From Eledone cirrhosa (lineage: Eukaryota), in assembly GCA_964016885.1 (NCBI GenBank), contig OZ024740.1:405728001-405792000 (forward strand): a stretch of DNA of 64,000 nt, read 5' to 3'. Every line of letters begins with the position of its first letter. The stretch's first letter is position 1. Below, piece by piece: positions 7,394 through 60,076 of this stretch. The notes under the pieces are model-generated. The model searched no databases. It was not told where the DNA came from and saw only the letters and a program-made list of their open reading frames with translations. Both the position numbers and the translations under genes were made by a program.

Positions 7394-7856
7394 TAGATAG
7401 ATAGATATGTTTCTTTATTAGCCACAGGGGCACAAAAGAAGGGGACAAATACAAAGGGGGAAGTTTACATACAATAAAAACATAGATAGATAGATAAATA
7501 GATAGATAGATAGATCCTCACGTGCAGGGAAAATGGAGATTAAATGATGATCATGATGAAGGAAAGAGAGAGAGGGAGAGAGAGAGTTTCTAGAATTATT
7601 GTATAATTATTTGGGCTGTAATCCAAAAATAGGCCAACTTCAACTACGTCTTACAGATCTGATGCCCTTGTCAGTCTGTTTGTACTTTGAGTATTTACTT
7701 CCAGCCACCCTCACACACCCTTCATACATTCTTCAACAATACATGCAAATTCACACACATATTATATATATATATACCACCACCCCACTCTCAAGAGCGT
7801 GAAACTAATAAACCTTTGTTCGTACTGCCTCTCTGTTTTGTTCGCGTTCAATTTTT

Positions 7857-19224: not shown

Positions 19225-19250
19225 AGTAGTAGTAGTAGTAGTAGTAGTAG

Positions 19251-19325
<75 letters not shown>

Positions 19326-25490: not shown

Positions 25491-25744
25491 AACCTTTATT
25501 AATAACAATGATTTCAATTATAAAGTTGAACAATTTTCTTACAGATTGCTCTATATTTTTCTTTCTGTTTATCCTCACATTTAACTAAGCAAGTCGATTA
25601 TAGTTTCAAGAAGTATACACAATACTTTTACTTATTTCCTTTTTCGTTTTCTTAGAAGGAAATTTATTTTAGTTAATTCCCACAACTAATTGTTTATTAG
25701 CATCATCACATTATTATGATTTTCTTTTCACAGATTCTGCCAAT

Positions 25745-25966
25745 ATGTGGTCGGCGTCCCTTTCGAAGTTGCATCACTTTCCACCTGTAAGTGTATTGAG
25801 CCGACGGTATTTTGGCGATAAAAGAAAGGTTCTAGCTATCCGCAGAGAAGATATTAATGTTTGGGAAAGAAGAGCTCCCCTTTCTCCAGCACATGTGAAA
25901 CAACTTGTGAAAGATGGCATTAAAGTCATTATACAACCTTCTAATCGTAGGGCTTACAGTATGATG
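25745..25966 (+). CDS. AASS: Alpha-aminoadipic semialdehyde synthase (LKR/SDH), first coding exon, including a probable mitochondrial presequence
   Basis: Acceptor TTTTCACAG|25734; [43 protein letters not shown] is the LKR N-terminus; donor ATG|GTAAGT, phase 0, 222 nt. Confidence 0.95.
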
Positions 25967-29269: not shown

Positions 29270-29446
29270 GAATATGTCCAGGCTGGTGCTGATTATCAAG
29301 AAGAAATGAATGAGGCTAGCTTGATTGTTGGTGTGAAACAAGTTCCTATAGATTTACTTTTGCCAGATAAGACTTATGCTTTCTTCTCACACACTATCAA
29401 AGCTCAGGAAGAAAATATGCCCCTACTGGATGCTCTTTTAGAAAAG
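29270..29446 (+). CDS. AASS: AASS coding exon 2 (LKR domain)
   Basis: Acceptor TTGTTCTATAG|; 177 nt EYVQAGADYQEEMNEASLIVGVKQVPIDLLLPDKTYAFFSHTIKAQEENMPLLDALLEK; donor AAG|GTATGT; phase 0-0 (absent from the ORF track). Confidence 0.95.
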
Positions 29447-30372: not shown

Positions 30373-30525
30373 AATATTCGACTCATTGATTATGAAAAAA
30401 TTTTGGACAGCAAAGGTCAAAGGCTAGTTGCTTTTGGAAAGTATGCTGGTGTGTCTGGAATGATAAATATCCTCCATGGACTAGGTTTACGTCTTCTCGC
30501 TCTTGGACACCAAACTCCATTTATG
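30373..30525 (+). CDS. AASS: AASS coding exon 3 (LKR domain)
   Basis: Acceptor TTATTTCTAG|; 153 nt [51 protein letters not shown]; donor ATG|GTAAGT; phase 0-0. Confidence 0.95.
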
Positions 30526-31246: not shown

Positions 31247-31420
31247 CCCTTTAGCGTTCAAACTAGACAAATCCGGCTGAAATTATTTCACCCTTATTTG
31301 TTCAAATCGGCCAAGTCCAGCTGCTGACACCCACAGTAAGACATTCTAAAAATAAACAATAACATCATAAAATCTCGTTGACTTGATATTACTGTGAGAT
31401 AAAGCCTTTACTATGAAATA
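31247..31420 (-). mobile_element. Partial piggyBac-type MITE (same family)
   Basis: TTAA-CCCTTTAGCGTTCAAAC terminus; internal AAAATCTC..GATATT..GTGAGATAAAGCCTTTACTATGAAA matches 26243-26290. Confidence 0.55.
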
Positions 31421-32018: not shown

Positions 32019-32246
32019 TTACAGCACCACACTCGACTGCGCAAATTGTGTCCTGATATCACTAAGCCAGATATCTATGTACACCACCACATGGAGCCAC
32101 TCCCTCAACAAACCAGATACTTTTGTGAAGAATTCTTCACAAAAATATCTGGTTTGTTGAGGGAGTGGCTCCATGTGGTGGTGTACATAGATATCTGGCT
32201 TAGTGATATCAGGACACAATTTGCGCAGTCGAGTGTGGTGCTGTAA
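32019..32246. repeat. 228-bp spacerless palindrome (114-bp arms, 1 mismatch)
   Basis: Arms TTACAGCACC..GTGAAGAA / TTCTTCAC..GGTGCTGTAA, centred on GAATTC (32130-32135). Confidence 0.95.
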
Positions 32247-32289
32247 GAAAGTTTTATTGTGTTTGACACACAATGTATATCTGTGGATA

Positions 32290-34626: not shown

Positions 34627-35147
34627 TATATATATAGACAAGTTGCATATGGTTTTTTTGTGTGAAACACAAACAAATGTATTTAACTTGTTGGTTGCTC
34701 CTTGATCAATACAATTTCATACATAAAATCAAGGTTGCACAATGATATTAAGTCAAGTGTGACATGACATCTTGAACAAGCTGCCAGAAAGGTGTATGCA
34801 TATGTGACAACACAAAATAGAGATATATATACTAGCATAGTGCCATCAAAAATGACTGGGTTACAGTGGTTCATATAGAGAAAGTTAAATAGGAGAGTGT
34901 GTTATTCATTCTTGAAACAATCAAACATTAACTCACTGAGCACTCAATACATGTAAATAGAACTTAGATTTTATATTACAAGTAAAATGTTGACAATGAT
35001 TTCAAAATGTTGACTGGTTAGTATTGTTAAATTATATGTATAATTAACATATATGTTTGTGCCTTAAAGCTTTGGGCCAACCAATGACTTGTGATAGAAT
35101 TTGATAGGCAGAAACTACAAGGAAGCCTGTCATATATGTGCATTTAT

Positions 35148-35478: not shown

Positions 35479-37009
35479 TGTGTCAGTCCATGCAGGTATC
35501 TTCATATCGACACTGTTTAAGAAACAAATGGTGACATTTATTTATATCTCCCCCATAAAACACATCCTACAGTGAAACGCCTCATCAAGCCAGGTATATA
35601 CATATAGAATAAAGTATGGGTTGCCTCTAAAATAGTCCAACCTATGCAAGCATGGAAAAGATAGATTTAGAAAGGATGAAACTTGGACAAGTGTTCTTTT
35701 TCAAACACTGAAATTATTCTTTGTTAACCTTAAACTTTCATTCATCTTGTAAAGACTGAGGTGTCTATAAAATTTATACCGGTAATGTGCTGAGACTGAT
35801 TTAAGTACCTATACATCTTCACCTATAACAATTGTGCTTAGTGCCTTATGAAAGCAATCAATATCTTCTTGAGTTGAAGCAAACATCTGAGACATAGTAT
35901 GAATATACACCTTAAGAGTTGTCAATAATTCTCTCTGTTCTCAGTTCAAATACTGCAACAGTCAACTTTTATTTCATCCTTTTGAGTCAATAAATTAAAT
36001 TAACTCTCCAGAGTGATGGATTGGAAGAATTGGTAGAGTGTTTGTGTTCTGAGTTCAAATCCTGCACTGATTTGGGTTCCTTTAGCTGAGCCCCACTTTG
36101 TTGCATTGAAATTGGGTCTCTAATTTGAAGATACCTTCTCATAACCCATAAAAAGGGTTATGGGCATGCTCTCCTTGACTAAACAGTAAAATATATTTTT
36201 TTAATCTGCTTTTGATTATAATCAAAAGATGATTTTAAAAATATATCAACAGTAAGTGAAGGGAAATTAACACTGATAATTATTGGTGCTAATTTCCCTT
36301 CACTTAACTCTTTAATGTCCTGTACCAGAGAATAACATATTAGATAATGTAATCCTAGTCATACTTTTTGCTTTAAAAATAAATAAGATCCACTATTTAA
36401 TTAAACATGTAACGAGCATGTATCCTATTATGCCAAATATTTTCAACATCTCTCAGACTAATTATAATTGTTTCTACTTTTGGCACAAGGCCAGCAATTA
36501 TCCCAGTACATTACTGGTACTTTATTTTATCGACCCCATAAGGAGGAAAGGCAAAGTTAACCTTGGCAGGATTTGAACTCAGACCGTAAAGGGGCGTAAC
36601 TCTATGCTGTAAAGCATGGTCTGACGCTCTACTGATACTGGCAATCCACCCTCCATCACTCTAAACAACCTAGACCCAGCTGCTATTTAGTCTATCACAA
36701 TAATGTTGCTGCTAGTTCAGGACCTTGTGTTGATGGATATATAGCATGCTACTAATGCTTTATTATTATTTTTTTAAATGTTTATTTGTTTAGTTTTTGT
36801 TATAACCTTGATTTTTTTACACACAAAAACCTACACTGTATTGGCCTGTGTACCTCCTGTGTTGGCCTGTGTACCTCCTGTGTTGGCCTGTGTACCTCCT
36901 CTATTGTTTAATGTCAGCCCTGTGTGGCTAATAAAGAAACCATTATTATTAACGGTAATCATAATAAGGGTTTATTTATTGGCCACACAGGGCTGACATT
37001 AAACAAGAG

Positions 37010-40000
37010 CCAACACAGGCCAACACAGGCGGTACACAGGCCAACACAGGCGGTACACAGGCGGTACACAGGCCAACACAGGCGGTACACAGGCCAACAC
37101 AGGCGGTACACAGGCCAACACAGGCCAACACAGGCGGTACACAGGCGGTACACAGGCCAACACAGGCGGTACACAGGCCAATACAGGCGGTACACAGGCG
37201 GTACACAGGCCAACACAGGCGGTACACAGGCGGTACACAGGCCAACACAGGCGGTACACAGGCCAACACAGGTGGTACACAGGCCAACACAGGCGGTACA
37301 CAGGCCAATACAGGCGGTACACAGGCCAACACAGGCGGTACACAGGCCAACACAGGCGGTACACAGGCCAACACAGGTGGTACACAGGCGGTACACAGGC
37401 GGTACACAGGCGGTACACAGGCCAACACAGGCGGTACACAGGCCAACACAGGCCAACACAGGCGGTACACAGGCGGTACACAGGCCAACACAGGCCAACA
37501 CAGGCGGTACACAGGCCAACACAGGCGGTACACAGGCCAACACAGGCGGTACACAGGCCAATACAGGCGGTACACAGGCGGTACACAGGCGGTACACAGG
37601 CCAACACAGGCGGTACACAGGCGGTACACAGGCCAACACAGGCGGTACACAGGCCAACACAGGCGGTACACAGGCCAACACAGGCGGTACACAGGCCAAC
37701 ACAGGCGGTACACAGGCCAATACAGGCGGTACACAGGCCAACACAGGCGGTACACAGGCGGTACACAGGCCAACACAGGCGGTACACAGGCGGTACACAG
37801 GCCAACACAGGCGGTACACAGGCCAACACAGGCGGTACACAGGCCAACACAGGCGGTACACAGGCCAACACAGGCGGTACACAGGCGGTACACAGGCCAA
37901 CACAGGCGGTACACAGGCCAACACAGGCGGTACACAGGCCAACACAGGCCAATACAGGCGGTACACAGGCCAATACAGGCGGTACACAGGCCAACACAGG
38001 CGGTACACAGGCCAACACAGGCGGTACACAGGCCAACACAGGCGGTACACAGGCCTACACAGGCGGTACACAGGCGGTACACAGGCCAACACAGGCGGTA
38101 CACAGGCCAACACAGGCGGTACACAGGCCAACACAGGCGGTACACAGGCCAACACAGGCGGTACACAGGCCAACACAGGCGGTACACAGGCCAACACAGG
38201 CGGTACACAGGCGGTACACAGGCCAACACAGGCGGTACACAGGCCAACACAGGCGGTACACAGGCCAACACAGGCGGTACACAGGCCAACACAGGCCAAC
38301 ACAGGCGGTACACAGGCCAACACAGGCGGTACACAGGCCAACACAGGCGGTACACAGGCCAACACAGGCGGTACACAGGCCAACACAGGCGGTACACAGG
38401 CCAACACAGGCGGTACACAGGCCAACACAGGCGGTACACAGGCCAACACAGGCGGTACACAGGCCAACACAGGCGGTACACAGGCCAACACAGGCGGTAC
38501 ACAGGCCAACACAGGCGGTACACAGGCCAACACAGGCGGTACACAGGCCAACACAGGCGGTACACAGGCCAACACAGGCGGTACATAGGCCAACACAGGC
38601 GGTACACAGGCCAACACAGGCGGTACACAGGCCAACACAGGCGGTACACAGGCCAATACAAGCGGTACACAGGCCAACACAGGCGGTACACAGGCCAACA
38701 CAGGCGGTACACAGGCCAAAATAGGCGGTACACAGGCCAACACAGGCGGTACACAGGCGGTACACAGGCCAACACAGGCGGTACACAGGCGGTACACAGG
38801 CGGTACACAGGCGGTACACAGGCCAACACAGGCGGTACACAGGCCAACACAGGCGGTACACAGGCCAACACAGGCGGTACACAGGCGGTACACAGGCGTA
38901 ACACAGGCGGTACACAGGCCAACACAGGCGGTACACAGGCGGCACACAGGCCAACACAGGCGGTACACAGGCCAACACAGGCGGTACACAGGCGGTACAC
39001 AGGCGGTACACAGGCCAACACAGGCGGTACACAGGCCAACACAGGCGGTACACAGGCCAATACAGGCGGTACACAGGCCAATACAGGCGGTACACAGGCC
39101 AACACAGGCGGTACACAGGCAAATACAGGCGGTACACAAGCCAACACAGGCGGTACACAGGCCAATACAGGCGGTACACAGGCGTACACAGGCGGTACAC
39201 AGGCCAACACAGGCGGTACACAGGCGGTACACAGGCCAACACAGGCGGTACACAGACCAACACAGGCGGTACACAGGCCAACACAGGCGGTACACAGGCC
39301 AATACAGGCGGTACACAGGCCAACACAGGCGGTACACAGGCCAACACAGGCGGTACACAGGCCAATACAGGCGGTACACAGGCCAACACAGGCGGTACAC
39401 AGGCCAACACAGGCGGTACACAGGCCAACACAGGCGGTACACAGGCGGTACACAGGCGGTACACAGGCCAACACAGGCGGTACACAGGCCAACACAGGCG
39501 GTACACAGGCCAATACAGGCGGTACACAGGCCAACACAGGCGGTACACAGGCCAACACAGGCGGTACACAGGCCAATACAGGCGGTACACAGGCCAACAC
39601 AGGCGGTACACAGGCCAACACAGGCGGTACACAGGCCAACACAGGCGGTACACAGGCCAACACAGGCGGTACACAGGCCAACACAGGTGGTACACAGGCC
39701 AACACAGGCGGTACACAGGCCAATACAGGCCAATACAGGCGGTACACAGGCCAATACAGGCGGTACACAGGCCAACACAGGCGGTACACAGGCCAACACA
39801 GGCGGTACACAGGCCAATACTGGCGGTACACAGGCCAACACAGGCGGTACACAGGCCAACACAGGCGGTACACAGGCCAATACAGGCGGTACACAGGCCA
39901 ATACAGGCGGTACACAGGCCAACACAGGCGGTACACAGGCCAATACAGGCGGTACACAGGCCTATACAGGCGGTACACAGGCCAATACAGGCGGTACACA

Positions 40001-43000
40001 GGCCAATACAGGCGGTACACAGGCCAACACAGGCGGTACACAGGCCAACACAGGCGGTACACAGGCCAACACAGGCGGTACACAGGCCAACACAGGCGGT
40101 ACACAGGCCAATACAGGCGGTACACAGGCCAATACAGGCGGTACACAGGCCAATACAGGCGGTACACAGGCCAATACAGGCGGTACACGGGCCAATACAG
40201 GCGGTACACAGGCCAACACAGGCGGTACACAGGCGGTACACAGGCCAACACAGGCGGTACACAGGCCAATACAGGCGGTACACAGGCCAATACAGGCGGT
40301 ACACAGGCCAATACAGGCGGTACACAGGCCAATACAGGCGGTACACAGGCCAACACAGGCGGTACACAGGCCAACACAGGCGGTACACAGGCGGTACACA
40401 GGCCAACACAGGCGGTACACAGGCGGTACACAGGCGGTACACAGGCCAACACAGGCGGTACACAGGCCAACACAGGCGGTACACAGGCCAACACAGGCGG
40501 TACACAGGCGGCACACAGGCCAACACAGGCGGTACACAGGCCAACACAGGCGGTACACAGGCCAACACAGGCGGTACACGGGCGGTACACAGGCCAACAC
40601 AGGCGGTACACAGGCCAACACAGGCGGTACACAGGCCAATACAGGCGGTACACAGGCCAATACAGGCGGTACACAGGCCAATACAGGCGGTACACAAGCC
40701 AACACAGGCGGTACACAGGCCAATACAGGCGGTACACAGGCGGTACACAGGCCAACACAGGCGGTACACAGGCCAACACAGGCGGTACACAGGCGGTACA
40801 CAGGCGGTACACAGACCAACACAGGCGGTACACAGGCCAACACAGGCGGTACACAGGCCAATACAGGCGGTACACAGGCCAACACAGGCGGTACACAGGC
40901 CAACACAGGCGGTACACAGGCCAATACAGGCGGTACACAGGCGGTACACAGGCCAACACAGGCGGTACACAGGCGGTACACAGGCGGTACACAGGCCAAC
41001 ACAGGCGGTACACAGGCCAACACAGGCGGTACACAGGCCAACACAGGCGGTACACAGGCCAACACAGGCGGTACACAGGCCAACACAGGCGGTACACAGG
41101 CCAACACAGGCGGTACACAGGCCAACACAGGCAGTACACAGGCCAACACAGGCGGTACACAGGCCAATACAGGCGGTACACAGGCCAATACAGGCGGTAC
41201 ACAGGCGGTACACAGGCCAACACAGGCCAACACAGGCGGTACACAGGCGGTACACAGGCCAATACAGGCGGTACACAGGCGGTACACAGGCCAACACAGG
41301 CGGTACACAGGCCAACACAGGCGGTACACAGGCCAACACAGGCGGTACACAGGCCAACACAGGTGGTACACAGGCCAACACAGGCGGTACACAGGCCAAT
41401 ACAGGCGGTACACAGGCCAATACAGGCGGTACACAGGCGGTACACAGGCCAATACTGGCGGTACACAGGCCAACACAGGCGGTACACAGGCCAACACAGG
41501 CGGTACACAGGCCAATACAGGCGGTACACAGGCCAATACAGGCGGTACACAGGCCAACACAGGCGGTACACAGGCCAATACAGGCGGTAGACAGGCCAAT
41601 ACAGGCGGTACACAGGCCAACACAGGCGGTACACAGGCCAATACAGGCGGTACACAGGCCAATACAGGCGGTACACAGGCCAATACAGGCGGTACACAGG
41701 CCAATACAGGCGGTACACAGGCCAATACAGGCGGTACACAGGCCAATACAGGCGGTACACAGGCGGTACACAGGCCAACACAGGCGGTACACATGCCAAC
41801 ACAGGCCAACACAGGCCAATACAGGCGGTACACAGGCCAATACAGGCGGTACACAGGCCAATACAGGCGGTACACAGGCCAATACAGGCGGTACACGGGC
41901 CAATACAGGCGGTACACAGGCCAACACAGGCGGTACACAGGCCAACACAGGCGGTACACAGGCCAACACAGGCGGTACACAGGCCAATACAGGCGGTACA
42001 CAGGCCAATACAGGCGGTACACAGGCCAATACAGGCGGTACACAGGCCAATACAGGCGGTACACAGGCCAAAACAGGCGGTACACAGGCCAACACAGGCG
42101 GTACACAGGCCAACACAGGCGGTACACAGGCCAACACAGGCGGTACACAGGCCAATACAGGCGGTACACAAGCCAATACAGGCGGTACACAGGCCAACAC
42201 AGGCGGTACACAGGCCAACACAGGCCAACACAGGCGGTACACAGGCCAACACAGGCGGTACACAGGCCAATACAGGCGGTACACAGGCCAATACAGGCGG
42301 TACACAGGCCAATACAGGCCAATACAGGCGGTACACGGGCCAATACAGGCGGTACACAGGCCAACACAGGCGGTACACAGGCCAACACAGGCGGTACACA
42401 GGCGGTACACAGGCCAATACAGGCGGTACACAGGCCAACACAGGCGGTACACAGGCCAACACAGGTGGTACACAGGCCAACACAGGCGGTACACAGGCCA
42501 ATACAGGCGGTACACAGGCCAATACAGGCGGTACACAGGCCAATACAGGCGGTACACAGGCCAACACAGGCGGTACACAGGCCAATACAGGCGGTACACA
42601 GGCCAATACAGGCGGTACACAGGCCAATACAGGCGGTACACAGGCCAAAACAGGCGGTACACAGGCCAACACAGGCGGTACACAGGCCAACACAGGCGGT
42701 ACACAGGCCAACACAGGCGGTACACAGGCCAATACAGGCGGTACACAGGCCAATACAGGCGGTACACAGGCCAACACAGGCGGTACACAGGCCAACACAG
42801 GCGGTACACAGGCCAACACAGGCGGTACACAGGCCAACACAGGCGGTACACAGGCCAATACAGGCGGTACACAGGCCAATACAGGCGGTACACAGGCCAA
42901 TACAGGCGGTACACGGGCCAATACAGGCGGTACACGGGCCAATACAGGCGGTACACAGGCCAACACAGGCGGTACACAGGCCAACACAGGCGGTACACAG

Positions 43001-46000
43001 GCCAATACAGGCGGTACACAGGCCAATACAGGCGGTACACAGGCCAACACAGGTGGTACACAGGCCAACACAGGCGGTACACAGGCCAATACAGGCGGTA
43101 CACAGGCCAATACAGGCGGTACACAGGCGGTACACAGGCCAATACAGGCGGTACACAGGCCAACACAGGCCAATACAGGCGGTACACAGGCCAATACAGG
43201 CGGTACACAGACCAACACAGGCGGTACACAGGCCAATACAGGCGGTACACAGGCCAATACAGGCGGTACACAGGCCAATACAGGCGGTACACAGGCCAAT
43301 ACAGGCGGTACACAGGCCAATACAGGCGGTACACAGGCCAATACAGGCCAACACAGGCCAATACAGGCCAATACAGGCGGTACACAGGCCAACACAGGCG
43401 GTACACAGGCCAATACAGGCGGTACACAGGCCAATACAGGCGGTACACAGGCCAACACAGGCGGTACACAGGCGGTACACAGGCCAATACAGGCGGTACA
43501 CAGGCCAACACAGGCGGTACACAGGCCAACACAGGCGGTACACAGGCCAATACAGGCGGTACACAGGCCAACACAGGCGGTACACAGGCGGTGCACAGGC
43601 CAATACAGGCGGTACACAGGCCAACACAGGCGGTACACAGGCCAACACAGGCGGTACACAGGCCAACACAGGCGGTACACAGGCCAACACAGGCGGTACA
43701 CAGGCCAATACAGGCGGTACACAGGCCAACACAGGCGGTACACAGGCCAATACAGGCGGTGCACAGGCCAATACAGGCGGTACACAGGCCAATACAGGCG
43801 GTACACAGGCCAACACAGGCGGTACACAGGCCAATACAGGCGGTACACAGGCCAACACAGGCCAATACAGGCGGTACACAGGCCAATACAGGCGGTACAC
43901 AGGCCAACACAGGCGGTACACAGGCCAACACAGGCCAATACAGGCGGTACACAGGCCAATACAGGCGGTACACAGGCCAATACAGGTGGTACACAGGCCA
44001 ATACAGGCGGTACACAGGCCAATACAGGCGGTACACAGGCCAACACAGGCGGTACACAGGCCAACACAGGCCAATACAGGCGGTACACAGGCCAATACAG
44101 GCGGTACACAGGCCAACACAGGCGGTACACAGGCCAACACAGGCGGTACACAGGCGGTACACAGGCCAACACAGGCGGTACACAGGCCAACACAGGCGGT
44201 ACACAGGCGGTACACAGGCCAACACAGGCGGTACACAGGCCAACACAGGCGGTACACAGGCCAATACAGGCCAACACAGGCGGTACACAGGCGGTACACA
44301 GGCCAACACAGGCGGTACACAGGCCAACACAGGCGGTACACAGGCCAATACAGGCGGTACACAGGCCAACACAGGCGGTACACAGGCCAACACAGGCGGT
44401 ACACAGGCCAACACAGGCGGTACACAGGCGGTACACAGGCCAACACAGGCGGTACACAGGCGGTACACAGGCGGTACACAGGCCAACGCAGGCGGTACAC
44501 AGGCCAACACAGGCGGTACACAGGCGGTACACAGGCCAACACAGGCGGTACACAGGCCAAGACAGGCGGTACACAGGCCAACACAGGCCAATACAGGCGG
44601 TACACAGGCCAACACAGGCGGTACACAGGCCAACACAGGCGGTACACAGGCCAATACAGGCGGTACACAGGCCAACACAGGCGGTACACAGGCGGTACAC
44701 AGGCCAATATAGGCGGTACACAGGCGGTACACAGGGCGGTACACAGGCCAACACAGGCGGTACACAGGCCAACACAGGCGGTACACAGGCGGTACACAGG
44801 CCAACACAGGCGGTACACAGGCCAACACAGGCGGTACACAGGCCAACACAGGCGGTACACAGGCCAACACAGGCGGTACACAGGCGGTACACAGGCGGTA
44901 CACAGGCGGTACACAGGCGGTACACAGGCCAACACAGGCGGTACACAGGCCAACACAGGCGGTACACAGGCCAACACAGGCGGTACACAGGCCAACACAG
45001 GCGGTACACAGGCCAATACAGGCGGTACACAGGCCAATACAGGCGGTACACAGGCCAACACAGGCGGTACACAGGCCAACACAGGCGGTACACAGGCCAA
45101 TACAGGCGGTACACAGGCCAATACAGGCGGTACACAGGCGGTACACAGGCCAACACAGGCGGTACACAGGCGGTACACAGGCCAACACAGGCGGTACACA
45201 GGCCAACACAGGCGGTACACAGGCCAATACAGGCGGTACACAGGCCTACACAGGCGGTACACAGGCCAACACAGGCGGTACACAGGCCAACACAGGCGGT
45301 ACACAGGCGGTACACAGGCCAACACAGGCGGTACACAGGCCAACACAGGCGGTACACAGGCGGTACACAGGCGGTACACAGGCCAATACAGGCGGTACAC
45401 AGGCCAACACAGGTGGTACACAGGCCAACACAGGCGGTACACAGGCCAATACAGGCGGTACACAGGCCAATACAGGCGGTACACAGGCCAATACAGGCGG
45501 TACACAGGCCAATACAGGCGGTACACAGGCCAACACAGGCGGTACACAGGCCAATAAATGCGGTACACAGGCCAATACAGGCGGTACACAGGCCAATACA
45601 GGCGGTACACAGGCCAACACAGGCGGTACACAGGCGGTACACAGGCCAACACAGGCGGTACACAGGCGGTACACAGGCCAACACAGGCGGTACACAGACC
45701 AACACAGGCGGTACACAGGCCAACACAGGCGGTACACAGGCCAATACAGGCGGTACACAGGCCAACACAGGCGGTACACAGGCCAACACAGGCGGTACAC
45801 AGGCCAATACAGGCCAATACAGGCGGTACACAGGCGGTACACAGGCCAACACAGGCGGTACACAGGCCAACACAGGCGGTACACAGGCCAACACAGGCGG
45901 TACACAGGCCAACACAGGCGGTACACAGGCCAACACAGGCGGTACACAGGCCAACACAGGCGGTACACAGGCCAACACAGGCGGTACACAGGCGGTACAC

Positions 46001-49000
46001 AGGCCAACACAGGCAGTACACAGGCCAACACAGGCGGTACACAGGCCAATACAGGCGGTACACAGGCCAACACAGGCGGTACACAGGCCAACACAGGCGG
46101 TACACAGGCCAACACAGGCGGTACACAGGCCAACACAGGCGGTACACAGGCCAATACAGGCGGTACACAGGCCAACACAGGCGGTACACAGGCCAACACA
46201 GGCGGTACACAGGCCAACACAGGCGGTACACAGGCCAACACAGGTGGTACACAGGCCAACACAGGCGGTACACAGGCCAATACAGGCGGTACACAGGCCA
46301 ATACAGGCGGTACACAGGCGGTACACAGGCCAATACAGGCGGTACACAGGCCAACACAGGCGGTACACAGGCCAACACAGGCGGTACACAGGCCAATACA
46401 GGCGGTACACAGGCCAATACAGGCGGTACACAGGCCAACACAGGCGGTACACAGGCCAATACAGGCGGTACACAGGCCAACACAGGCGGTACACAGGCCA
46501 ACACAGGCGGTACACAGGCCAATACAGGCGGTACACAGGCCAATACAGGCGGTACACAGGCCAATACAGGCGGTACACAGGCCAATACAGGCGGTACACA
46601 GGCCAATACAGGCGGTACACAGGCGGTACACAGGCCAACACAGGCGGTACACATGCCAACACATGCCAACACAGGCGGTACACAGGCCAATACAGGCGGT
46701 ACACAGGCCAATACAGGCGGTACACAGGCCAATACAGGCGGTACACAGGCCAATACAGGCCAATACAGGCGGTACACGGGCCAATACAGGCGGTACACAG
46801 GCTAACACAGGCGGTACACAGGCGGTACACAGGCCAACACAGGCGGTACACAGGCCAACACAGGCGGTACACAGGCCAATACAGGCGGTACACAGGCCAA
46901 TACAGGCGGTACACAGGCCAATACAGGCGGTACACAGGCCAATACAGGCGGTAACAGGCCAAAACAGGCGGTACACAGGCCAACACAGGCGGTACACAGG
47001 CCAACACAGGCGGTACACAGGCCAACACAGGCGGTACACAGGCCAATACAGGCGGTACACAGGCCAATACAGGCGGTACACAGGCCAACACAGGCGGTAC
47101 ACAGGCCAACACAGGCGGTACACAGGCCAACACAGGCGGTACACAGGCCAATACAGGCGGTACACAGGCCAATACAGGCGGTACACAGGCCAATACAGGC
47201 CAATACAGGCGGTACACGGGCCAATACAGGCGGTACACAGGCCAACACAGGCGGTACACAGGCCAACACAGGCGGTACACAGGCCAACACAGGCGGTACA
47301 CAGGCGGTACACAGGCCAATACAGGCGGTACACAGGCCAATACAGGCGGTACACAGGCCAACACAGGTGGTACACAGGCCAACACAGGCGGTACACAGGC
47401 CAATACAGGCGGTACACAGGCCAATACAGGCGGTACACAGGCGGTACACAGGCCAATACAGGCGGTACACAGGCCAACACAGGCGGTACACAGGCCAATA
47501 CAGGCGGTACACAGGCCAATACAGGCGGTACACAGGCCAAAACAGGCGGTACACAGGCCAACACAGGCGGTACACAGGCCAACACAGGCCAACACAGGCG
47601 GTACACAGGCCAACACAGGCGGTACACAGGCCAATACAGGCGGTACACAGGCCAACACAGGCGGTACACAGGCCAACACAGGCCGTACACAGGCCAACAC
47701 AGGCAGTACACAGGCCAACACAGGCGGTACACAGGCCAATACAGGCGGTACACAGGCCAATACAGGCGGTACACAGGCCAATACAGGCGGTACACGGGCC
47801 AATACAGGCGGTACACAGGCGGTACACAGGCCAACACAGGCGGTACACAGGCCAACACAGGCGGTACACAGGCCAATACAGGCGGTACACAGGCCAATAC
47901 AGGCGGTACACAGGCCAACACAGGTGGTACACAGGCCAACACAGGCGGTACACAGGCCAATACAGGCGGTACACAGGCCAATACAGGCGGTACACAGGCC
48001 AATACAGGCGGTACACAGGCCAACACAGGCGGTACACAGGCGGTACACAGGCCAATACAGGCGGTACACAGGCCAATACAGGCGGTACACAGGCCAACAC
48101 AGGCGGTACACAGGCCAATACAGGCGGTACACAGGCCAATACAGGCGGTACACAGGCCAATACAGGCGGTACACAGGCCAATACAGGCGGTACACAGGCC
48201 AATACAGGCGGTACACAGGCCAATACAGGCCAACACAGGCCAATACAGGCGGTACACAGGCGGTACACAGGCCAATACAGGCGGTACACAGGCCAATACA
48301 GGCGGTACACAGGCCAATACAGGCGGTACACAGGCCAACACAGGCGGTACACAGGCCAATACAGGCGGTACACAGGCCAACACAGGCGGTACACAGGCCA
48401 ACACAGGCGGTACACAGGCCAACACAGGCCAATACAGGCGGTACACAGGCCAATACAGGCGGTGCACAGGCCAATACAGGCGGTACACAGGCCAATACAG
48501 GCGGTACACAGGCCAACACAGGCGGTACACAGGCCAACACAGGCGGTACACAGGCCAACACAGGCGGTACACAGGCCAATACAGGCGGTGCACAGGCCAA
48601 CACAGGCGGTACACAGGCCAATACAGGCGGTGCACAGGCCAATACAGGCGGTACACAGGCCAATACAGGCGGTACACAGGCCAACACAGGCGGTACACAG
48701 GCCAACACAGGCGGTACACAGGCCAATACAGGCGGTACACAGGCCAACACAGGCCAATACAGGCGGTACACAGGCCAATACAGGCGGTACACAGGCCAAC
48801 ACAGGCGGTACACAGGCCAACACAGGCCAATACAGGCGGTACACAGGCCAATACAGGCGGTACACAGGCCAATACAGGCGGTACACAGGCCAATACAGGC
48901 GGTACACAGGCCAATACAGGCGGTACACAGGCCAACACAGGCGGTACACAGGCCAACACAGGCCAATACAGGCGGTACACAGGCCAATACAGGCGGTACA

Positions 49001-52000
49001 CATGCCAACACAGGCGGTACACAGGCCAATACAGGCGGTACACAGGCCAACACAGGCGGTACACAGGCCAACACAGGCGGTACACAGGCCAACACAGGCG
49101 GTACACAGGCCAATACAGGCGGTACACAGGCCAACACAGGCGGTACACAGGCGGTACACAGGCGGTACACAGGCCAACACAGGCGGTACACAGGCGGTAC
49201 ACAGGCCAACACAGGCGGTACACAGGCCAACACAGGCGGTACACAGGCCAACACAGGCGGTACACAGGCCAACACAGGCGGTACACAGGCCAATACAGGC
49301 CAACACAGGCGGTACACAGGCCAACACAGGCGGTACACAGGCCAACACAGGCGGTACACAGGCCAACACAGGTGGTACACAGGCCAATACAGGCGGTACA
49401 CAGGCCAACACAGGCGGTACACAGGCCAACACAGGCGGTACACAGGCCAACACAGGCGGTACACAGGCGGTACACAGGCCAACACAGGCGGTACACAGGC
49501 CAACACAGGCGGTACACAGGCGGTACACAGGCCAACACAGGCGGTACACAGGCCAACACAGGCGGTACACAGGCCAACACAGGCGGTACACAGGCCAACA
49601 CAGGCGGTACACAGGCCAACACAGGCGGTACACAGGCCAACACAGGCCAATACAGGCGGTACACAGGCCAACACAGGCGGTACACAGGCGGTACACAGGC
49701 CAACACAGGCGGTACACAGGCCAACACAGGCCAATACAGGCGGTACACAGGCCAACACAGGCCAACACAGGCGGTACACAGGCCAATATAGGCGGTACAC
49801 AGGCGGTACACAGGCCAACACAGGCGGTACACAGGCCAACACAGGCGGTACACAGGCCAACACAGGCGGTACACAGGCGGTACACAGGCCAACACAGGCG
49901 GTACACAGGCGGTACACAGGCCAACACAGGCGGTACACAGGCGGTACACAGGCCAACACAGGCGGTACACAGGCCAACACAGGCGGTACACAGGCGGTAC
50001 ACAGGCCAACACAGGCGGTACACAGGCCAATACAGGCGGTACACAGGCCAATACAGGCGGTACACAGGCCAACACAGGCGGTACACAGGCCAACACAGGC
50101 GGTACACAGGCCAATACAGGCGGTACACAGGCCAATACAGGCGGTACACAGGCGGTACACAGGCCAACACAGGCGGTACACAGGCGGTACACAGGCGGTA
50201 CACAGGCCAACACAGGCCAATACAGGCGGTACACAGGCCAACACAGGCGGTACACAGGCGGTACACAGGCCAACACAGGCGGTACACAGGCCAACACAGG
50301 CGGTACACAGGCCAACACAGGCGGTACACAGGCCAACACAGGCGGTACACAGGCCAACACAGGCGGTACACAGGCCAACACAGGCGGTACACAGGCCAAT
50401 GCAGGCGGTACACAGGCCAACACAGGTGGTACACAGGCCAACACAGGCGGTACACAGGCCAATACAGGCGGTACACAGGCCAATACAGGCGGTACACAGG
50501 CCAATACAGGCGGTACACAGGCCAACACAGGCGGTACACAGGCCAACACAGGCGGTACACAGGCCAATACAGGCGGTACACAGGCCAATACAGGCGGTAC
50601 ACAGGCCAATACAGGCGGTACACAGGCCAATACAGGCGGTACACAGGCCAACACAGGCGGTACACAGGCCAACACAGGCGGTACACAGGCCAATACAGGC
50701 GGTACACAGGCCAATACAGGCGGTACACAGGCCAACACAGGCGGTACACAGGCCAACACAGGCGGTACACAGGCGGTACACAGGCCAACACAGGCGGTAC
50801 ACAGGCCAATACAGGCGGTACACAGGCCAATACAGGCGGTACACAGGCCAATACAGGCGGTACACAGGCGGTACACAGGCCAACACAGGCGGTACACAGG
50901 CCAATACAGGCGGTACACAGGCCAATACAGGCGGTACACAGGCGGTACACAGGCCAACACAGGGGGTACACAGGCCAATACAGGCGGTACACAGGCCAAT
51001 ACAGGCGGTACACAGGCCAACACAGGCGGTACACAGGCGGTACACAGGCCAACACAGGCGGTACACAGGCGGTACACAGGCCAACACAGGCGGTACACAG
51101 GCCAATACAGGCGGTACACAGGCCAATACAGGCGGTACACAGGCCAATACAGGCGGTACACAGGCCAACACAGGCGGTACACAGGCCAATACAGGCGGTA
51201 CACAGGCCAATACAGGCGGTACACAGGCCAACACAGGCGGTACACAGGCGGTACACAGGCGGTACACAGGCCAACACAGGCGGTACACAGGCGGTACACA
51301 GGCCAACACAGGCGGTACACAGGCCAATACAGGCGGTACACAGGCCAATACAGGCGGTACACAGGCCAATACAGGCGGTACACAGGCCAACACAGGCGGT
51401 ACACAGGCCAATACAGGCGGTACACAGGCCAATACAGGCGGTACACAGGCCAACACAGGCGGTACACAGGCCAATGCAGGCGGTACACAGGCCAATACAG
51501 GCGGTACACAGGCCAATACAGGCGGTACACAGGCCAACACAGGCGGTACACAGGCCAACACAGGCGGTACACAGGCCAACACAGGCGGTACACAGGCCTA
51601 CACAGGCGGTACACAGGCCAATACAGGCGGTACACAGGCCAACACAGGTGGTACACAGGCGGTACACAGGCCAATACAGGCGGTACACAGGCCAATACAG
51701 GCGGTACACAGGCCAACACAGGCGGTACACAGGCCAATACAGGCGGTACACAGGCCAATACAGGCGGTACACAGGCCAACGCAGGCGGTACACAGGCCAA
51801 TACAGGCGGTACACAGGCCAATACAGGCGGTACACAGGCGGTACACAGGCCAACACAGGCGGTACACAGGCCAATACAGGCGGTACACAGGCCAATACAG
51901 GCGGTACACAGGCCAATACAGGCGGTACACAGGCCAACACATGCGGTACACAGGCCAACACAGGCGGTACACAGGCCAATACAGGCGGTACACAGGCCAA

Positions 52001-55000
52001 TACAGGCGGTACACAGGCCAATACAGGCGGTACACAGGCCAATACAGGCGGTACACAGGCCAATACAGGCGGTACACAGGCCAACACAGGCGGTACACAG
52101 GCCAACACAGGCGGTACACAGGCCAATACAGGCGGTACACAGGCCAATACAGGCCAATACAGGCGGTACACAGGCGGTACACAGGCCAATACAGGCGGTA
52201 CACAGGCGGTACACAGGCCAATACAGGCCAATACAGGCGGTACACAGGCCAATACAGGCGGTACACAGGCCAATACAGGCGGTACACAGGCCAATACAGG
52301 CGGTACACAGGCCAACACAGGCGGTACACAGGCGGTACACAGGCGGTACACAGGCCAATACAGGCGGTACACAGGCCAACACAGGCGGTACACAGGCCAA
52401 TACAGGCGGTACACAGGCCAACACAGGCGGTACACAGGCCAACACAGGCCAATACAGGCGGTACACAGGCCAACACAGGCCAATACAGGCGGTACACAGG
52501 CCAACACAGGCGGTACACAGGCCAACACAGGCGGTACACAGGCCAACACAGGCGGTACACAGGCGGTACACAGGCCAATACAGGCGGTACACAGGCCAAC
52601 ACAGGCGGTACACAGGCCAACACAGGCGGTACACAGGCGATACACAGGCGGTACACAGGCCAATACAGGCGGTACACAGGCCAATACAGGCGGTACACAG
52701 GCCAATACAGGCGGTACACAGGCCAACACAGGCGGTACACAGGCCAACACAGGCGGTACACAGGCGGTACACAGGCCAATACAGGCGGTACACAGGCCAA
52801 TACAGGCGGTACACAGGCCAACACAGGCGGTACACAGGCCAATACAGGCGGTACACAGGCCAATACAGGCGGTACACAGGCGGTACACAGGCCAACACAG
52901 GCGGTACACAGGCGGTACACAGGCCAACACAGGCGGTACACAGGCCAATACAGGCGGTACACAGGCCAACACAGGCGGTACACAGGCCAACACAGGCGGT
53001 ACACAGGCCAATACAGGCGGTACACAGGCCAATACAGGCGGTACACAGGCCAATACAGGCGGTACACAGGCCAATACAGGCGGTACACAGGCCAACACAG
53101 GCGGTACACAGGCGGTACACAGGCCAACACAGGCCAATACAGGCGGTACACAGGCCAACACAGGCGGTACACAGGCGGTACACAGGCCAATACAGGCGGT
53201 ACACAGGCCAACACAGGCGGTACACAGGCCAATACAGGCGGTACACAGGCCAATACAGGCGGTACACAGGCCAACACAGGCGGTACACAGGCCAACACAG
53301 GCGGTACACAGGCCAATACAGGCGGTACACAGGCCAATACAGGCGGTACACAGGCCAACACAGGCGGTACACAGGCCAATACAGGCGGTACACAGGCCAA
53401 TACAGGCGGTACACAGGCCAATACAGGCGGTACACAGGCGGTACACAGGCCAACACAGGCGGTACACAGGCCAACACAGGCCAATACAGGCGGTACACAG
53501 GCCAATACAGGCGGTACACAGGCCAACACAGGCGGTACACAGGCCAATACAGGCGGTACACAGGCCAATACAGGCCAATACAGGCGGTACACAGGCCAAT
53601 ACAGGCCAATACAGGCGGTACACAGGCCAATACAGGCCAATACAGGCGGTACACAGGCCAATACAGGCGGTACACAGGCCAACACAGGCGGTACACAGGC
53701 CAATACAGGCGGTACACAGGCCAATACAGGCGGTACACAGGCCAACACAGGCGGTACACAGGCCAACACAGGCGGTACACAGGCCAACACAGGCGGTACA
53801 CAGGCCAACACAGGCGGTACACAGGCCAATACAGGCGGTACACAGGCCAACACAGGCGGTACACAGGCCAATACAGGCGGTACACAGGCCAATACAGGCG
53901 GTACACAGGCCAACATAGGCCAATACAGGCGGTACACAGGCCAACACAGGCCAATACAGGCGGTAGACAGGCCAATACAGGCGGTACACAGGCGGTACAC
54001 AGGCCAACACAGGCGGTACACAGGCCAACACAGGCGGTACACAAGCCAACACAGGCGGTACACAGGCCAATACAGGCGGTACACAGGCCAACACAGGCGG
54101 TACACAGGCCAATACAGGCGGTACACAGGCCAATACAGGCCAATACAGGCGGTACACAGGCCAATACAGGCGGTACACAGGCCAACACAGGCGGTACACA
54201 GGCCAATACATGCGGTACACAGGCCAATACAGGCGGTACACAGGCCAACACAGGCCAATACAGGCGGTACACAGGCCAACACAGGCGGTACACAGGCCAA
54301 TACAGGCGGTACACAGGCCAACACAGGCGGTACACAGGCCAATACAGGCGGTACACAGGCCAACACAGGCGGTACACAGGCCAATACAGGCGGTACACAG
54401 GCCAACACAGGCGGTACACAGGCCAACACAGGCGGTACACAGGCCAATACAGGCGGTACACAGGCCAATACAGGCGGTACACAGGCCAATACAGGCGGTA
54501 CACAGGCGGTACACAGGCCAATACAGGCGGTACACAGGCCAACACAGGCGGTACACAGGCCAACACAGGCGGTACACAGGCCAATACAGGCGGTACACAG
54601 GCCAACACAGGCGGTACACAGGCCAACACAGGCGGTACACAGGCCAACACAGGCGGTACACAGGCCAACACAGGCGGTACACAGGCGGTACACAGGCCAA
54701 TACAGGCGGTACACAGGCGGTACACAGGCCAATACAGGCGGTACACAGGCCAACACAGGCGGTACACAGGCCAACACAGGCCAACACAGGCAGTACACAG
54801 GCCAACACAGGCGGTACACAGGCGGTACACAGGCGGTACACAGGCGGTACACAGGCCAACACAGGCGGTACACAGGCCAACACAGGCGGTACACAGGCCA
54901 ATACAGGCGGTACACAGGCCAACACAGGCGGTACACAGGCCAATACAGGCGGTACACAGGCCAATACAGGCGGTACACAGGCCAATACAGGCGGTACACA

Positions 55001-56323
55001 GGCGGTACACAGGCCAATACAGGCGGTACACAGGCCAACACAGGCGGTACACAGGCCAACACAGGCGGTACACAGGCCAACACAGGCGGTACACAGGCCA
55101 ACACAGGCGGTACACAGGCCAATACAGGCGGTACACAGGCCAATACAGGCGGTACACAGGCCAACACAGGCGGTACACAGGCCAATACAGGCGGTACACA
55201 GGCCAACACAGGCAGTACACAGGCCAACACAGGCCAACACAGGCAGTACACAGGCCAACACAGGCGGTACACAGGCCAATACAGGCGGTACACAGGCGGT
55301 ACACAGGCCAATACAGGCGGTACACAGGCCAACACAGGCGGTACACAGGCCAACACAGGCCAACACAGGCAGTACACAGGCCAACACAGGCGGTACACAG
55401 GCCAACACAGGCGGTACACAGGCCAATACAGGCGGTACACAGGCCAACACAGGCGGTACACAGGCCAACACAGGCCAACACAGGCAGTACACAGGCCAAC
55501 ACAGGCGGTACACAAGCCAATACAGGCGGTACACAGGCGGTACACAGGCCAATACAGGCGGTACACAGGCCAACACAGGCGGTACACAGGCCAACACAGG
55601 CGGTACACAGGCCAATACAGGCGGTACACAGGCCAACACAGGCGGTACACAGGCCAACACAGGCAGTACACAGGCCAACACAGGCGGTACACAGGCCAAT
55701 ACAGGCGGTACACAGGCCAACACAGGCAGTACACAGGCCAACACAGGCGGTACACAGGCCAACACAGGCGGTACACAGGCCAATACAGGCGGTACACAGG
55801 CCAACACAGGCGGTACACAGGCCAATACAGGCGGTACACAGGCCAACACAGGCGGTACACAGGCCAACACAGGCGGTACACAGGCCAACACAGGCGGTAC
55901 ACAGGCCAACACAGGCGGTACACAGGCCAATACAGGCGGTACACAGGCCAATACAGGCGGTACACAGGCCAACACAGGCGGTACACAGGCCAATACAGGC
56001 GGTACACAGGCGGTACACAGGCCAACACAGGCGGTACACAGGCGGTACACAGGCCAACACAGGCGGTACACAGGCCAATACAGGCGGTACACAGGCCAAT
56101 ACAGGCGGTACACAGGCGGTACACAGGCCAACACAGGCGGTACACAGGCCAACACAGGCCAACACAGGCCAATACAGGCGGTACACAGGCCAACACAGGC
56201 GGTACACAGGCGGTACACAGGCCAATACAGGCGGTACACAGGCCAACACAGGCCAATACAGGCGGTACACAGGCCAACACAGGCGGTACACAGGCCAACA
56301 CAGGCGGTACACAGGCCAACACA
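37010..56323 (+). repeat. 19.3 kb satellite of 10-mer GGCCAA(C/T)ACA and 11-mer GGCGGTACACA (basic 21-bp dimer, ~920 dimer equivalents)
   Basis: Continuous array with occasional homo-runs of either monomer and rare point variants. Confidence 0.99.
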
Positions 56324-56470
56324 GTGTAGGTTTTGTGTGTAAAAAATAAAACATTAAAAAAAGTAATAATAAGCATTTGTAGCATGCTATATATCCATCA
56401 ACACAAGGTCCTGAACTAGCAGCAACATTATTGTGATAGACTAAATAGCAGCTGGGTCTAAGTTGTTTAG

Positions 56471-56667
56471 CCCTTTAGCATTCACATTACTCTATATATA
56501 CTATTATATTTTCATGGTAAAGGCTTTACCTCACATAATATCGAATCTATGAGATTTTGAAAGAATTTATTTTGAGAACAATACCTTAACATCAATTTGA
56601 ACGACTAGTTACAGCCAGTTTCAACAGAAAGGGATAGAGAATTCTGACCGGTTTGAACATTAAAGGG
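56471..56667 (+). mobile_element. piggyBac-type MITE inserted into the right terminal repeat of the foldback
   Basis: TIRs CCCTTTAGCATTCACA / TTTGAACATTAAAGGG; flanks TTAG (left) and TTAA (right); interrupts the arm homology, which resumes at 56672. Confidence 0.8.
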
Positions 56668-56977
56668 TTAAAGTGATGGAGGGTGTCAAGGTTTATAGCC
56701 ATACTTTGCAACCTGTTGTATTGATGATTTGGCAAACTGTCTAACCCTTGCTAGTGTGGAAAATGGCCGTTAAACAATGATAACGATGATACTTTTCTAA
56801 ATAATCTAAGCATAAGGCCAACCAATTTGATGGAAGGGCAAAGTTGATTAAATCAATCCCAGTACTTGACTTGTACTTTATTTTATTGACTCCAAAAGGA
56901 TGAAGAGCAAAGTTAACTTTGGCAAGATTTGAACTCAGAATATAAAGTACTAGAGCAAATACTGCAATGGCATTTAT

Positions 56978-58683
56978 CCTATACTTAGCTTTTGTTGACT
57001 TGGAGAAAGCCTTCGACAGAGACCCCCGTTCCATTATCTGGTGGGCTCTTAGAAAACTAGGTGTTGACGAATGGCTCATCAGAGCTATACAAGCCATGTA
57101 TAAAGACACAGTCAGCAAGGTTAGAATTAACAACGAATATAGTGAAGAGTTTAGCGTAAAAGTTGGTGTCCATCAGGGCTCTGTTCTTAGCCCCCTACTA
57201 TTTATTATTGCCCTTCAGGCTATAACAGAGGAGTTCAAGACCGGCTGCCCATGGGAACTCCTATATGCAGATGATCTAACGCTCATAGCTGAATCAATGG
57301 CCGAGCTAGAGAAGAAATTCCAAACATGGAAGCACGGCCTAGAATCAAAAGGCCTTAAAATTAACCTGGCTAAGACTAAAGTTCTAGTTTGTAGGAAAGA
57401 AAATAAGGCGCCGGTCCCTTCCGGGAAATGGCCATGCTCAGTGTGTAGGAAAGGCGTAGGTAGAAACTCCATTTTATGTCCCAAATGCAAAGTATGGGTG
57501 CATAAAAGTTGTAGTGGGATCACAGGTAAGCTAACTAAGAACATAGATTTTACATGTGGCCGGTGCTCTGGTGCAATAAGTAGCAGCAAGTGCCCACAAA
57601 ATACTAGCTCTTTCAATTGCGCAGAGGGTTCTATAGAGATAGTGGACAGCTTCCGTTACCTGGGCAGCAAAATCAGCAGTGGGGGAGGGTGCTCTGAAAG
57701 TACAGTAGCTAGAGTCAGAACTGGTTGGAAAAAGTTCAGAGAGCTTATACCACTATTAGCCGCTAAAGGGTTCTCCCTAAGAATGAAAGGCAGGTTGTAT
57801 GATGCCTGCATACGAACAGCAATGTTGCATGGCAGTGAGACCTGGGCATTGTGTGCAGAGGATATACGCAGACTAGAGAGGAACGAAGCTTGCATGCTCC
57901 GCTGGATGTGTAATAGTAACATACGTGAACGGTAAAGCATAAGCGAACTAAGGAAAAAATTAGAAATAAGAGGGATCAGATGTTGTTTACTCGAGAGAAG
58001 GCTACGTTGGTATGGTCACGTGATGCGCATGAAAGACGACAGCTGTATAACAAAGTGCAGGGCAATAAAGATAGACGGTAGCTACGGAGTAGGCAGACCC
58101 AGAAAAACCTGGGACGAGCTGATAAATTCTGACCTCACACACTTACACCTCTCCAAGACAATGTCACTGGACCGAGACCTTTGGCGGTACTCAGTAATAG
58201 AGAAGACCCGCCTTACCTAAATACAAAGTAAAACCTACTACAGCCAGTAGGCATCTCTAACAAAATACCCCCCCCCCCCCCCTATCCACACCGCCCCTTC
58301 AATGTAAAGTTATGTTGGTGCCACAACATCCAGGCCGAAACAAATGAGATCGTGTAGGTGTCACGACAAAAAAACACAGTCCACGCTGTAATGTGGCCGT
58401 GTAGGCAACACTGTAAATGTGGTTGGTGTGAGGAAGGGCATCCAGCTGTAGAAAACCTGCCAGACAGTCCACGCTGTAATGTGGCCGTGTAGGCAACACG
58501 GTAAAAACCTCCCAGCCCCACACTGTAAATGTGGTTGGTGTTAGGAAGGGCATCCAGCTGTAGAAAACCCGCGAGACAGTCCTATGCGAGCAAGACAACC
58601 ATTCTTGCCTCAAATGGGAAAACCCCCATCCAAACCCATGCAAGCGTGGAACACGGACGTTAAACGTTGATGATGATGATGAT
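56978..58683 (+). mobile_element. 5'-truncated RTE LINE with a nonsense codon at 57933 and a partial 3' UTR duplication
   Basis: ORFs 56967-57935 and 58020-58220 lie in one frame; UTR module repeated at 58376-58495; (GAT)n tail. Confidence 0.95.
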
Positions 58684-59385: not shown

Positions 59386-59721
59386 TCTGTGGGGTATGGC
59401 TGAGGCACAGCTCAGACTGGGGTGTAGTGACTCTCCCGCCCCTCTCTGTGGGGCATGTCTGTAACACCTCTCAGACTGGGGTGTAATGACTGTCCCCTTC
59501 TCTGTGGGGTATGGCTGAAGCACTGCTCAGACTGGGGTGTAATGACTGTCCTGCCCCTTCTCTGTGGGGTATGGCTGAGGCACTGCCCAGACTGGGGTGT
59601 AATGACTGTCCCATCTCTGTGGGGTATGGCTGTAACACCACTCAGACTGGGCTGTAATGACTGTCCTCTTCTCTGTGGGGTATGGCTGAGGCACTGCTCA
59701 GACTGGGCTGTAATGACTGTC
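59386..59721. repeat. ~52-57-bp minisatellite, ~6 copies
   Basis: CTCTGTGGGGTATGGCTG(AGGCACTG/TAACACC.)CTCAGACTGGGGTGTAATGACTGTCC. Confidence 0.92.
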
Positions 59722-60076
59722 TCCTCTCTTTCTTTTGCTGCTTGATACTTCTTTCTTTTTCTCCTTTTCATTTTCTTTTTTATTTCTTCCATTTCTGTTC
59801 CCCCTTTAATAGTGTGTTAGGTTTTTATGAGATACTGCTCAATTATTCTTATATAATGTCAATGGCCTTTCACCACATTGGAAGATTTTGTATATTGAGT
59901 AAATTGTATAAGAAAGGTAGGATGGTCATGGAATGAAAGTCTTTGATAATATATTTAGTTAGAGATAACTTGCAGCTGCACAACTGCATATTGCTGAATA
60001 TACAAACTTACTGTTTAATGACCTTTCACTGGCTGTTTCATGCTGTTACAGTTGGCCATTATATACATACATACAT

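Follow-up and report, generated by a model that had tools for sequence, protein, structure and literature searches.

Anatomy of the palindrome

We analyzed a stretch of 64,000 nt from the genome of the octopod Eledone cirrhosa (GenBank assembly GCA_964016885.1, contig OZ024740.1, positions 405,728,001 to 405,792,000), hereafter the window, to which all window-wide statements refer. One palindrome of ~20 kb spans positions 36647-56685 of this stretch, and its arms hold 3 repeat units on the left and an array of 19,314 nt on the right. A first-pass annotation, made from the letters alone, had described a single palindrome with one expanded arm, composed of outer arm, tandem domain, inner arm and short middle. 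Arm alignments, repeat finding and a parse of the array bore out both the structure and this layout. From left to right, the parts are:

36647..36835, plus strand: left outer arm, an inverted match to 56322-56470 and 56672-56685; likely the 5′ part of a retroposon copy, E1
36836..36900, plus strand: three units of 21 nt each in the left arm (3.4 copies in Tandem Repeats Finder), all with the left-specific base
36901..36949, plus strand: left inner arm, with AATAAA at 36930 and then an (ATT)n tail; likely a retroposon 3′ end
36950..36960, no strand: central spacer of 11 nt, containing a 4-nt inverted repeat
36961..37009, minus strand: right inner arm, with AATAAA and an (ATT)n-like tail on the minus strand; likely the 3′ end of a copy E2
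37009..56322, minus strand: minisatellite array of 19,314 nt, with 1,836 subunits, 11 or 10 nt long, that follow no regular order
56322..56470, minus strand: right outer arm, an inverted match to the left outer arm
56467..56671, plus strand: miniature inverted-repeat transposable element (MITE) of the TTAA type (piggyBac-like), ~200 nt, inside the right arm; 83% identical to 26160-26332, with a weaker relative at 31243-31446
56672..56685, minus strand: outermost 14 nt of the right arm, an exact inverted match to 36647-36660

The alignment of the left outer arm (36647-36839) with the right one comprised 160 matches and 4 mismatches (97.6%) with two 1-nt indels, and ~27 nt of the left arm had no counterpart on the right. 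The outermost 14 nt occur at only these two sites in the window. The inner arms (49 nt each, 92% complementary, separated by the 11-nt spacer) place the centre of the palindrome at ~36955, which refines the previously given centre of ~36953 and inner arm of 50 bp. Folding of the central hairpin (36836-37080) was far beyond chance, with z = -20 against 200 shuffles.

The MITE within the right arm has TTAG as its left and TTAA as its right flank; TTAG is also the sequence of the left arm, which no insert breaks up. We take this element to be piggyBac-like from its TTAA/CCC termini; flanks of TTAG and TTAA are known from piggyBac insertion at a non-canonical site.

Neither a further outer-arm copy nor a further repeat unit was found elsewhere in the 64 kb. 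The lists of open reading frames (ORFs) around the array, which leave out the array interior, contained no transposase-like ORF, and the same had been remarked in the first-pass annotation. Metagenome scans with the inner-arm motif and the unit motif yielded 0 matches each; octopod DNA is not expected in metagenomes. Of nine sequencing runs compared, three runs from one sample held 0.84-0.90 of the 135 words of 35700-37030, but they are possibly the assembly's own source and have no bearing on the array; shares of 0.12, 0.04 and 0.04 in runs from three other organisms carry no weight as evidence.

The minisatellite array

The array is long (19.3 kb), homogeneous and arranged head to tail, and as a lone 19-kb stretch built on a 21-nt unit it counts as a minisatellite of great length. 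Parsing resolved it into 957 subunits of 11 nt and 879 subunits of 10 nt, the latter in two variants (507 + 372). Perfect copies of these three canonical forms accounted for 1,746 of the 1,836 subunits, and 90 departed from them, corresponding to 0.5% per base. The order of the two subunit types is irregular, with 821 AB, 821 BA, 136 AA and 57 BB steps. The array length reported earlier was borne out, but the accompanying figure of ~920 units is merely this length divided by 21 and does not describe the irregular string of subunits, which is not a plain 21-mer. At both of its junctions, the array keeps the register of the left arm.

A diagnostic base distinguishes the units of the two arms. 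The sequence GGAGGTAC occurs three times in the left units (minus strand) and 0 times in the array, and GGCGGTAC occurs 914 times in the array and 0 times on the left. Because the left-specific base is present in 3/3 left units and in 0/914 of the array, the multiplication of units in one arm or both postdates the split of the arms. The arm-specific base had been noted in the first-pass annotation, and it supports the proposal made there that the expansion was asymmetric and followed the divergence of the arms.

Within the array, we identified a large internal duplication:

40624..50184, no strand: tandem duplication of ~4.85 kb (40624-45170 vs 45476-50184), with nested duplications of ~1.57 kb and ~0.58 kb

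The two 4.85-kb blocks were identical at 385 of the 463 aligned subunit columns, with a score of 351.5 compared to 128 and 86 for two control pairs. Rare-variant pairs at an offset of 4.9 kb numbered 14, a count reached in 0 of 1000 label shuffles. The duplication is visible only through gapped alignment and rare variants; exact runs of at least 20 in the subunit code numbered 0 in the array and 1-4 in three Markov controls.

The 11-nt subunit shows 54 single changes, and 24 of them turn C to T or G to A at its CpG; variants that were copied by duplication are not independent counts. These CpG transitions would fit the pattern of methyl-C decay. In octopus, methylation was reported on gene bodies and at relatively higher levels on satellites, and the transitions in the array fit this report (PMC9476566). 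Judged from the nested duplications, rare variants and CpG transitions together, the array looks aged and stepwise in build, rather than newborn.

A stop-free frame of 3,742 codons runs across the array on the minus strand (45246-56474). We take it to be a by-product of subunits that contain no stop codon on this strand.

Inner ends and retroposon tails

Both arms finish at the centre with AATAAA followed by an (ATT)n-like tail. The ATT-type tails of short interspersed elements (SINEs) in the window end, in 6 of 6 cases, with AGAAA(C/T) followed by (ATT)n, and octopus SINE tails are known to end in a similar motif. The end of the inner arm recurs in a separate insert:

7409..7485, minus strand: insert of ~77 nt between (ATCT)n runs, whose end has 18 nt in common with the inner arm

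Positions 36923-36940 of the left inner arm match 7409-7426 exactly over these 18 nt (blastn E 2.2e-4), and a microsatellite tail follows the insert. This match length was reached by 1 of 500 dinucleotide shuffles. When up to 5 mismatches were allowed, a 23-nt end motif had three sites outside the array, namely both arms and the insert at 7409. Upstream of the 18-nt match, the left arm and this insert are only loosely alike. A common end combined with loose upstream likeness is the pattern of tail-sharing retroposons (PMC4758252, PMC5786205). The repeat unit of the palindrome also resembles the terminal motif of its own arm.

Searches for the tail motif in print gave no full-text match and 0 matches in the 8 of 12 supplements of PMC9115989 that were searched. 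No ORF2 remnant or tRNA-like head was found upstream; neither is expected in a short 5′-truncated copy. The outer arm was also considered as the end of an ORF of a long interspersed element (LINE) and rejected as such: the sole match, P0121, is a 7-fold repeat protein with 8/16 identities per repeat, and its E-value was discounted because it is the sum of weak per-repeat matches.

Facing retroposon tails occur at several other sites. Among 31 other tails in the window, four pairs lie tail to tail within 100 nt (11656/11706, 14570/14627, 58663/58726 and 61008/61045). Random placement, a control that ignores insertion clustering, predicted 0.53 such pairs and reached at least 4 in 15 of 10,000 trials. 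The excess of facing tails suggests that retroposons inserted into simple-repeat tails left by earlier copies. Furthermore, the unit of a 49-nt minisatellite at 60077-60625 can be aligned with a unit that is repeated in RTE 3′ regions and a SINE body, and this minisatellite continues into an element of that type.

Termini and target site

The left end of the palindrome meets a SINE, and a retroposon tail lies beyond its right end:

36459..36649, minus strand: SINE copy, 87% identical to the copy at 13400-13591; its head points toward the palindrome and is short by ~8 nt that are present in the sister copy
56740..56790, plus strand: tail of a retroposon of the RTE type, directed away from the palindrome

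The SINE and the left arm share CAC, which closes the former and opens the latter; the SINE had previously been described as abutting the left end, which holds with this 3-nt overlap. Two small AT-rich palindromes (36191-36246 and 36253-36306, 86-89%) lie just left of the SINE.

At its true ends, the palindrome has the termini CAC...GTG and a direct repeat of 2 nt (TC on each side). Over the boundaries 36640-36662 x 56670-56695, the longest direct repeat was 3 nt. A target-site duplication (TSD) of 8-10 nt, as in the foldback element Tetris, was not present at the boundaries tried, in agreement with the earlier statement that no clear TSD is visible. A 10-nt near-repeat around the SINE plus the left arm was rejected as a TSD because both of its pieces are (AAT)n-like tails. 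Termini of the type CAC...GTG with a TSD of 2-3 nt are characteristic of CACTA/EnSpm-type elements. Checked for this likeness, the locus has CAC...GTG and TC; the left CAC is also SINE sequence, and a 2-nt repeat is near chance (~1/16). Searches against Rfam at the right end (56380-57000) gave two matches, both far below the gathering score.

Probable host gene and neighbouring elements

Upstream of the palindrome, we identified three coding exons of AASS (alpha-aminoadipic semialdehyde synthase) by comparison with an Octopus sinensis protein (P0001):

25733..25966, plus strand: AASS coding exon, residues 8-85 of P0001 (84% identity by tblastn, 88% in another comparison), matching Pfam AlaDh_PNT_N
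29270..29446, plus strand: AASS coding exon, residues 86-144 of P0001 (95% identity)
30373..30525, plus strand: AASS coding exon, residues 145-195 of 946 (98% identity), the last exon in the window

The first of these exons supports the cephalopod host that had been assumed. Up to position 64000, later AASS exons gave no match at E <= 1. With three plus-strand exons (residues 8-195 of 946) upstream and the next one beyond the window, the palindrome probably lies in the AASS intron that follows the third exon. The earlier location 'within a gene' is thus likely, with the downstream exon outside the window.

The window is rich in other repeats. At least six RTE-like LINE copies with reverse transcriptase and PHD-like regions are present (4437-6512, 9948-11324, 11674-13414, 24296-25494, 32191-34635 and 56978-58683), five of them 87-95% alike and one ~75%. 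Directly upstream of the longest copy (ORF 32191-34194, with RVT_1 and PHD-like matches) is a hairpin at 32019-32246, consisting of two 114-nt arms that are 99% complementary without a spacer and preceded by a 13-nt tandem duplication. Two outward-pointing RTE-type tails at 2447-2793 stand head to head and form a palindrome of ~350 nt. Another palindromic element, of ~360 nt and 96% self-complementary, lies at 8924-9280 beside a (TA)n run and is MITE-like with a TA site. A second long minisatellite (16321-19092) consists of 52 copies of 53 nt and matched none of the four retroposon ends tried; after it, four trinucleotide runs (TAG, GTT, TGC, TGG) abut each other at 19224-19357. Further to the right are a 56-nt minisatellite (59386-59729) and, at the right edge of the window, pieces of a DUF7041 ORF (63151-63954), presumably from the gag region of a long terminal repeat (LTR) element.

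Discussion

On balance, we lean towards an origin of the palindrome from two copies of one retroposon 3′ end, placed tail to tail, of which the right copy expanded an internal minisatellite. The whole 20 kb would then not be a mobile unit. We infer the retroposon identity of the copies, the route to the inverted pair and the order of events as follows. A retroposon end of ~310 nt, with about one 21-nt unit resembling its own terminal motif, may have come to lie in the likely AASS intron. An inverted second copy would have been placed beside its tail, either through a second insertion that hit the simple-repeat tail or through fold-back copying on the spot. The two copies could then have diverged by a few percent, with one base of the 11-nt subunit changing in one of them, and each would have multiplied its own version. 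The right copy may have grown through slippage and unequal exchange, initially by gain and loss of subunits and then by duplications of 0.58, 1.57 and 4.85 kb. The TTAA-type MITE would have entered the right arm later. The arrival of the second inverted copy would explain the 3-nt overlap at the left junction and the clipped SINE head. Fold-back copying and self-primed complementary DNA (PMC3846280) are candidate routes by a single event, as opposed to two insertions (PMC5932611). At 4 mismatches in 164, the outer arms resemble each other more than do most pairs of retroposon copies in the window (RTE copies 75-95%; short SINE pairs reach 96-98%), and this high identity favours one event over two independent insertions.

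Several observations speak against a retroposon origin. In addition to the closeness of the outer arms just mentioned, the common end motif is only 18 nt long and AT-rich, gave an nhmmer E of 0.041 and has a single insert outside the palindrome, which could instead be a fragment of a foldback family. The stem in the tail folded no better than shuffles in the arms (z -0.37 and 0.33; z -1.97 for the insert at 7409). No retroposon family could be named: a 35-aa frame of the outer arm had one chance-like match among 1.84 billion proteins, and Pfam returned no family for three short frames. Between the right end and the neighbouring RTE-type tail, 56686-56740, a possible continuation of the right copy, gave no convincing alignment with 11 SINE/RTE 3′ regions. 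Clustering of insertions could bear on the count of facing tails, and CAC...GTG termini with TC on each side also fit a DNA transposon.

Such a transposon was in effect the proposal of the first-pass annotation, which had read the arms as terminal inverted repeats (TIRs) of a foldback/MITE family that would act as a satellite generator; in the window, its repeat is confined to this array and the three left units. A non-autonomous foldback element of the Tetris, Rehavkus or TU kind, with modular TIRs, a transposase encoded elsewhere and one expanded tandem domain, is possible but in our view doubtful. Its flanking, tandem and inner domains around a short middle would reproduce the layout described for Tetris (PMC4079207), it is possible to let the two arms end at one common base, with CAC...GTG termini and TC outside, the outer arms are 97.6% alike, and palindromic MITE-like elements do occur in the window (8924-9280). 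Yet the TSD of 8-10 nt found with Tetris is missing, the left CAC is also expected from the SINE, the 2-nt repeat has a chance of ~1/16, and the window holds no second outer arm. Moreover, a polyadenylation-like signal and a tail are present at the inner ends and recur in an insert found in a single orientation. The absence of a TSD of foldback length, the retroposon-like inner ends and the common tail-to-tail pairs leave the TIR interpretation unsupported. A combination of both ideas, in which facing retroposon ends became a CAC...GTG hairpin that is moved by a DNA transposase, would amount to an octopod foldback family derived from a class I element, with a seed repeat that could expand to multi-kb arrays at each site; we regard this as a long shot.

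Two other explanations were considered. If the array length or its internal duplication were partly a product of assembly, for instance through an end-to-end join of two haplotypes or excessive expansion of repeats, the two 4.85-kb blocks might well differ as alleles or a noisy consensus would, and they do so at 78 of 463 columns, of which 44 are subunit gaps. We nevertheless think this improbable, given the 90 non-canonical subunits among 1,836, the CpG transitions in the manner of methyl-C decay (24/54, with variants that are not independent), junctions that are both in register with the left arm, and duplications nested at three scales. Still harder to credit is that a replication template switch once duplicated ordinary, non-mobile intron DNA in inverted orientation and that a chance minisatellite later expanded. 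Models of template switching are in print (PMC5453318, PMC2621351), and the 3-nt left overlap, the clipped SINE head, the inverted repeat in the spacer and the lack of a TSD would all be in keeping with it. However, the duplicated piece ends exactly at the signal-plus-tail motif that recurs at 7409-7426 and is therefore unlikely to be unique DNA, and a template switch acting on a retroposon copy is already covered by the retroposon-pair explanation.

Large expansion from inverted termini and arrays derived from retrotransposon 3′ regions are already described. In Drosophila virilis, the Tetris foldback element is linked to the TIR-220 satellite, and its unit number varies between arms and alleles (PMC4079207). 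Like Tetris, the octopod locus has long inverted arms with unique outer, tandem and inner domains, a short non-coding middle, a unit number that is unequal between the arms and a unit resembling another part of the arm. Tetris has TSDs of 8-10 nt, several complete copies, AT-rich units of 220 nt and arrays on many contigs, whereas the octopod locus has a repeat of at most 2 nt, one copy in the window, GC-rich subunits of 10/11 nt and inner ends resembling retroposon tails. For Rehavkus-associated satellites of Tribolium, 2-12 copies in the inverted termini were reported to correspond to arrays of up to 80.5 kb in a sister species, and Rehavkus termini may exceed 11 kb (PMC12581902). The name Rehavkus denotes a family of DNA transposons with TIRs, whereas no transposase is seen in the ORF lists around the octopod array.

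Retrotransposon 3′ regions as sources of arrays include repeats of the Ogre 3′ untranslated region (PisTR-A and Lathyrus satellites), the L1 3′ end in the cetacean common satellite, and the HeT-A 3′ region (PMC9659126, PMC7004042). What they share with the octopod locus, on the retroposon reading, is a retroelement whose non-coding 3′ portion holds a short tandem repeat that occasionally grows to array length. They involve, however, LTR elements or monomers of great length, and the Lathyrus arrays are mostly centromeric, compared to a 21-nt unit in a likely intronic position that faces an unexpanded sister copy. Inverted double insertions of transposable elements were described in Drosophila, where inverted dimers were set aside as unlikely sources of satellites (PMC5932611), and 3′-end self-priming was predicted to yield tail-to-tail repeats in Penelope-like elements (PMC3846280). 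Opposed copies, a short spacer and 5′ microhomology junctions without a TSD are features that the octopod locus has in common with both (PMC5932611, PMC3846280). The Penelope junctions in the latter source are mostly head to head, and no Penelope ORF was seen here; unlike in the Drosophila case, the octopod array grows within one arm and not from a dimer. No description of this repeat or of an octopod foldback family was found in titles and abstract starts, a search that covered few subscription papers and no repeat databases.

The locus contains an internal control: 100 nt separate the copy of ~1,800 subunits from its sister, which has three units, and a single diagnostic base dates the expansion to after the split of the two copies. 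How a handful of repeats begins to grow into an extended array could thereby become measurable in octopods, for which we found no paper on such arrays. At the same time, the locus calls for caution, since retroposon tails can produce a layout that resembles a foldback element. Should the palindrome indeed lie in the AASS intron, the pre-mRNA would contain a hairpin of ~110 bp and a sense AATAAA at 36930, and both RNA editing and early polyadenylation would be conceivable.

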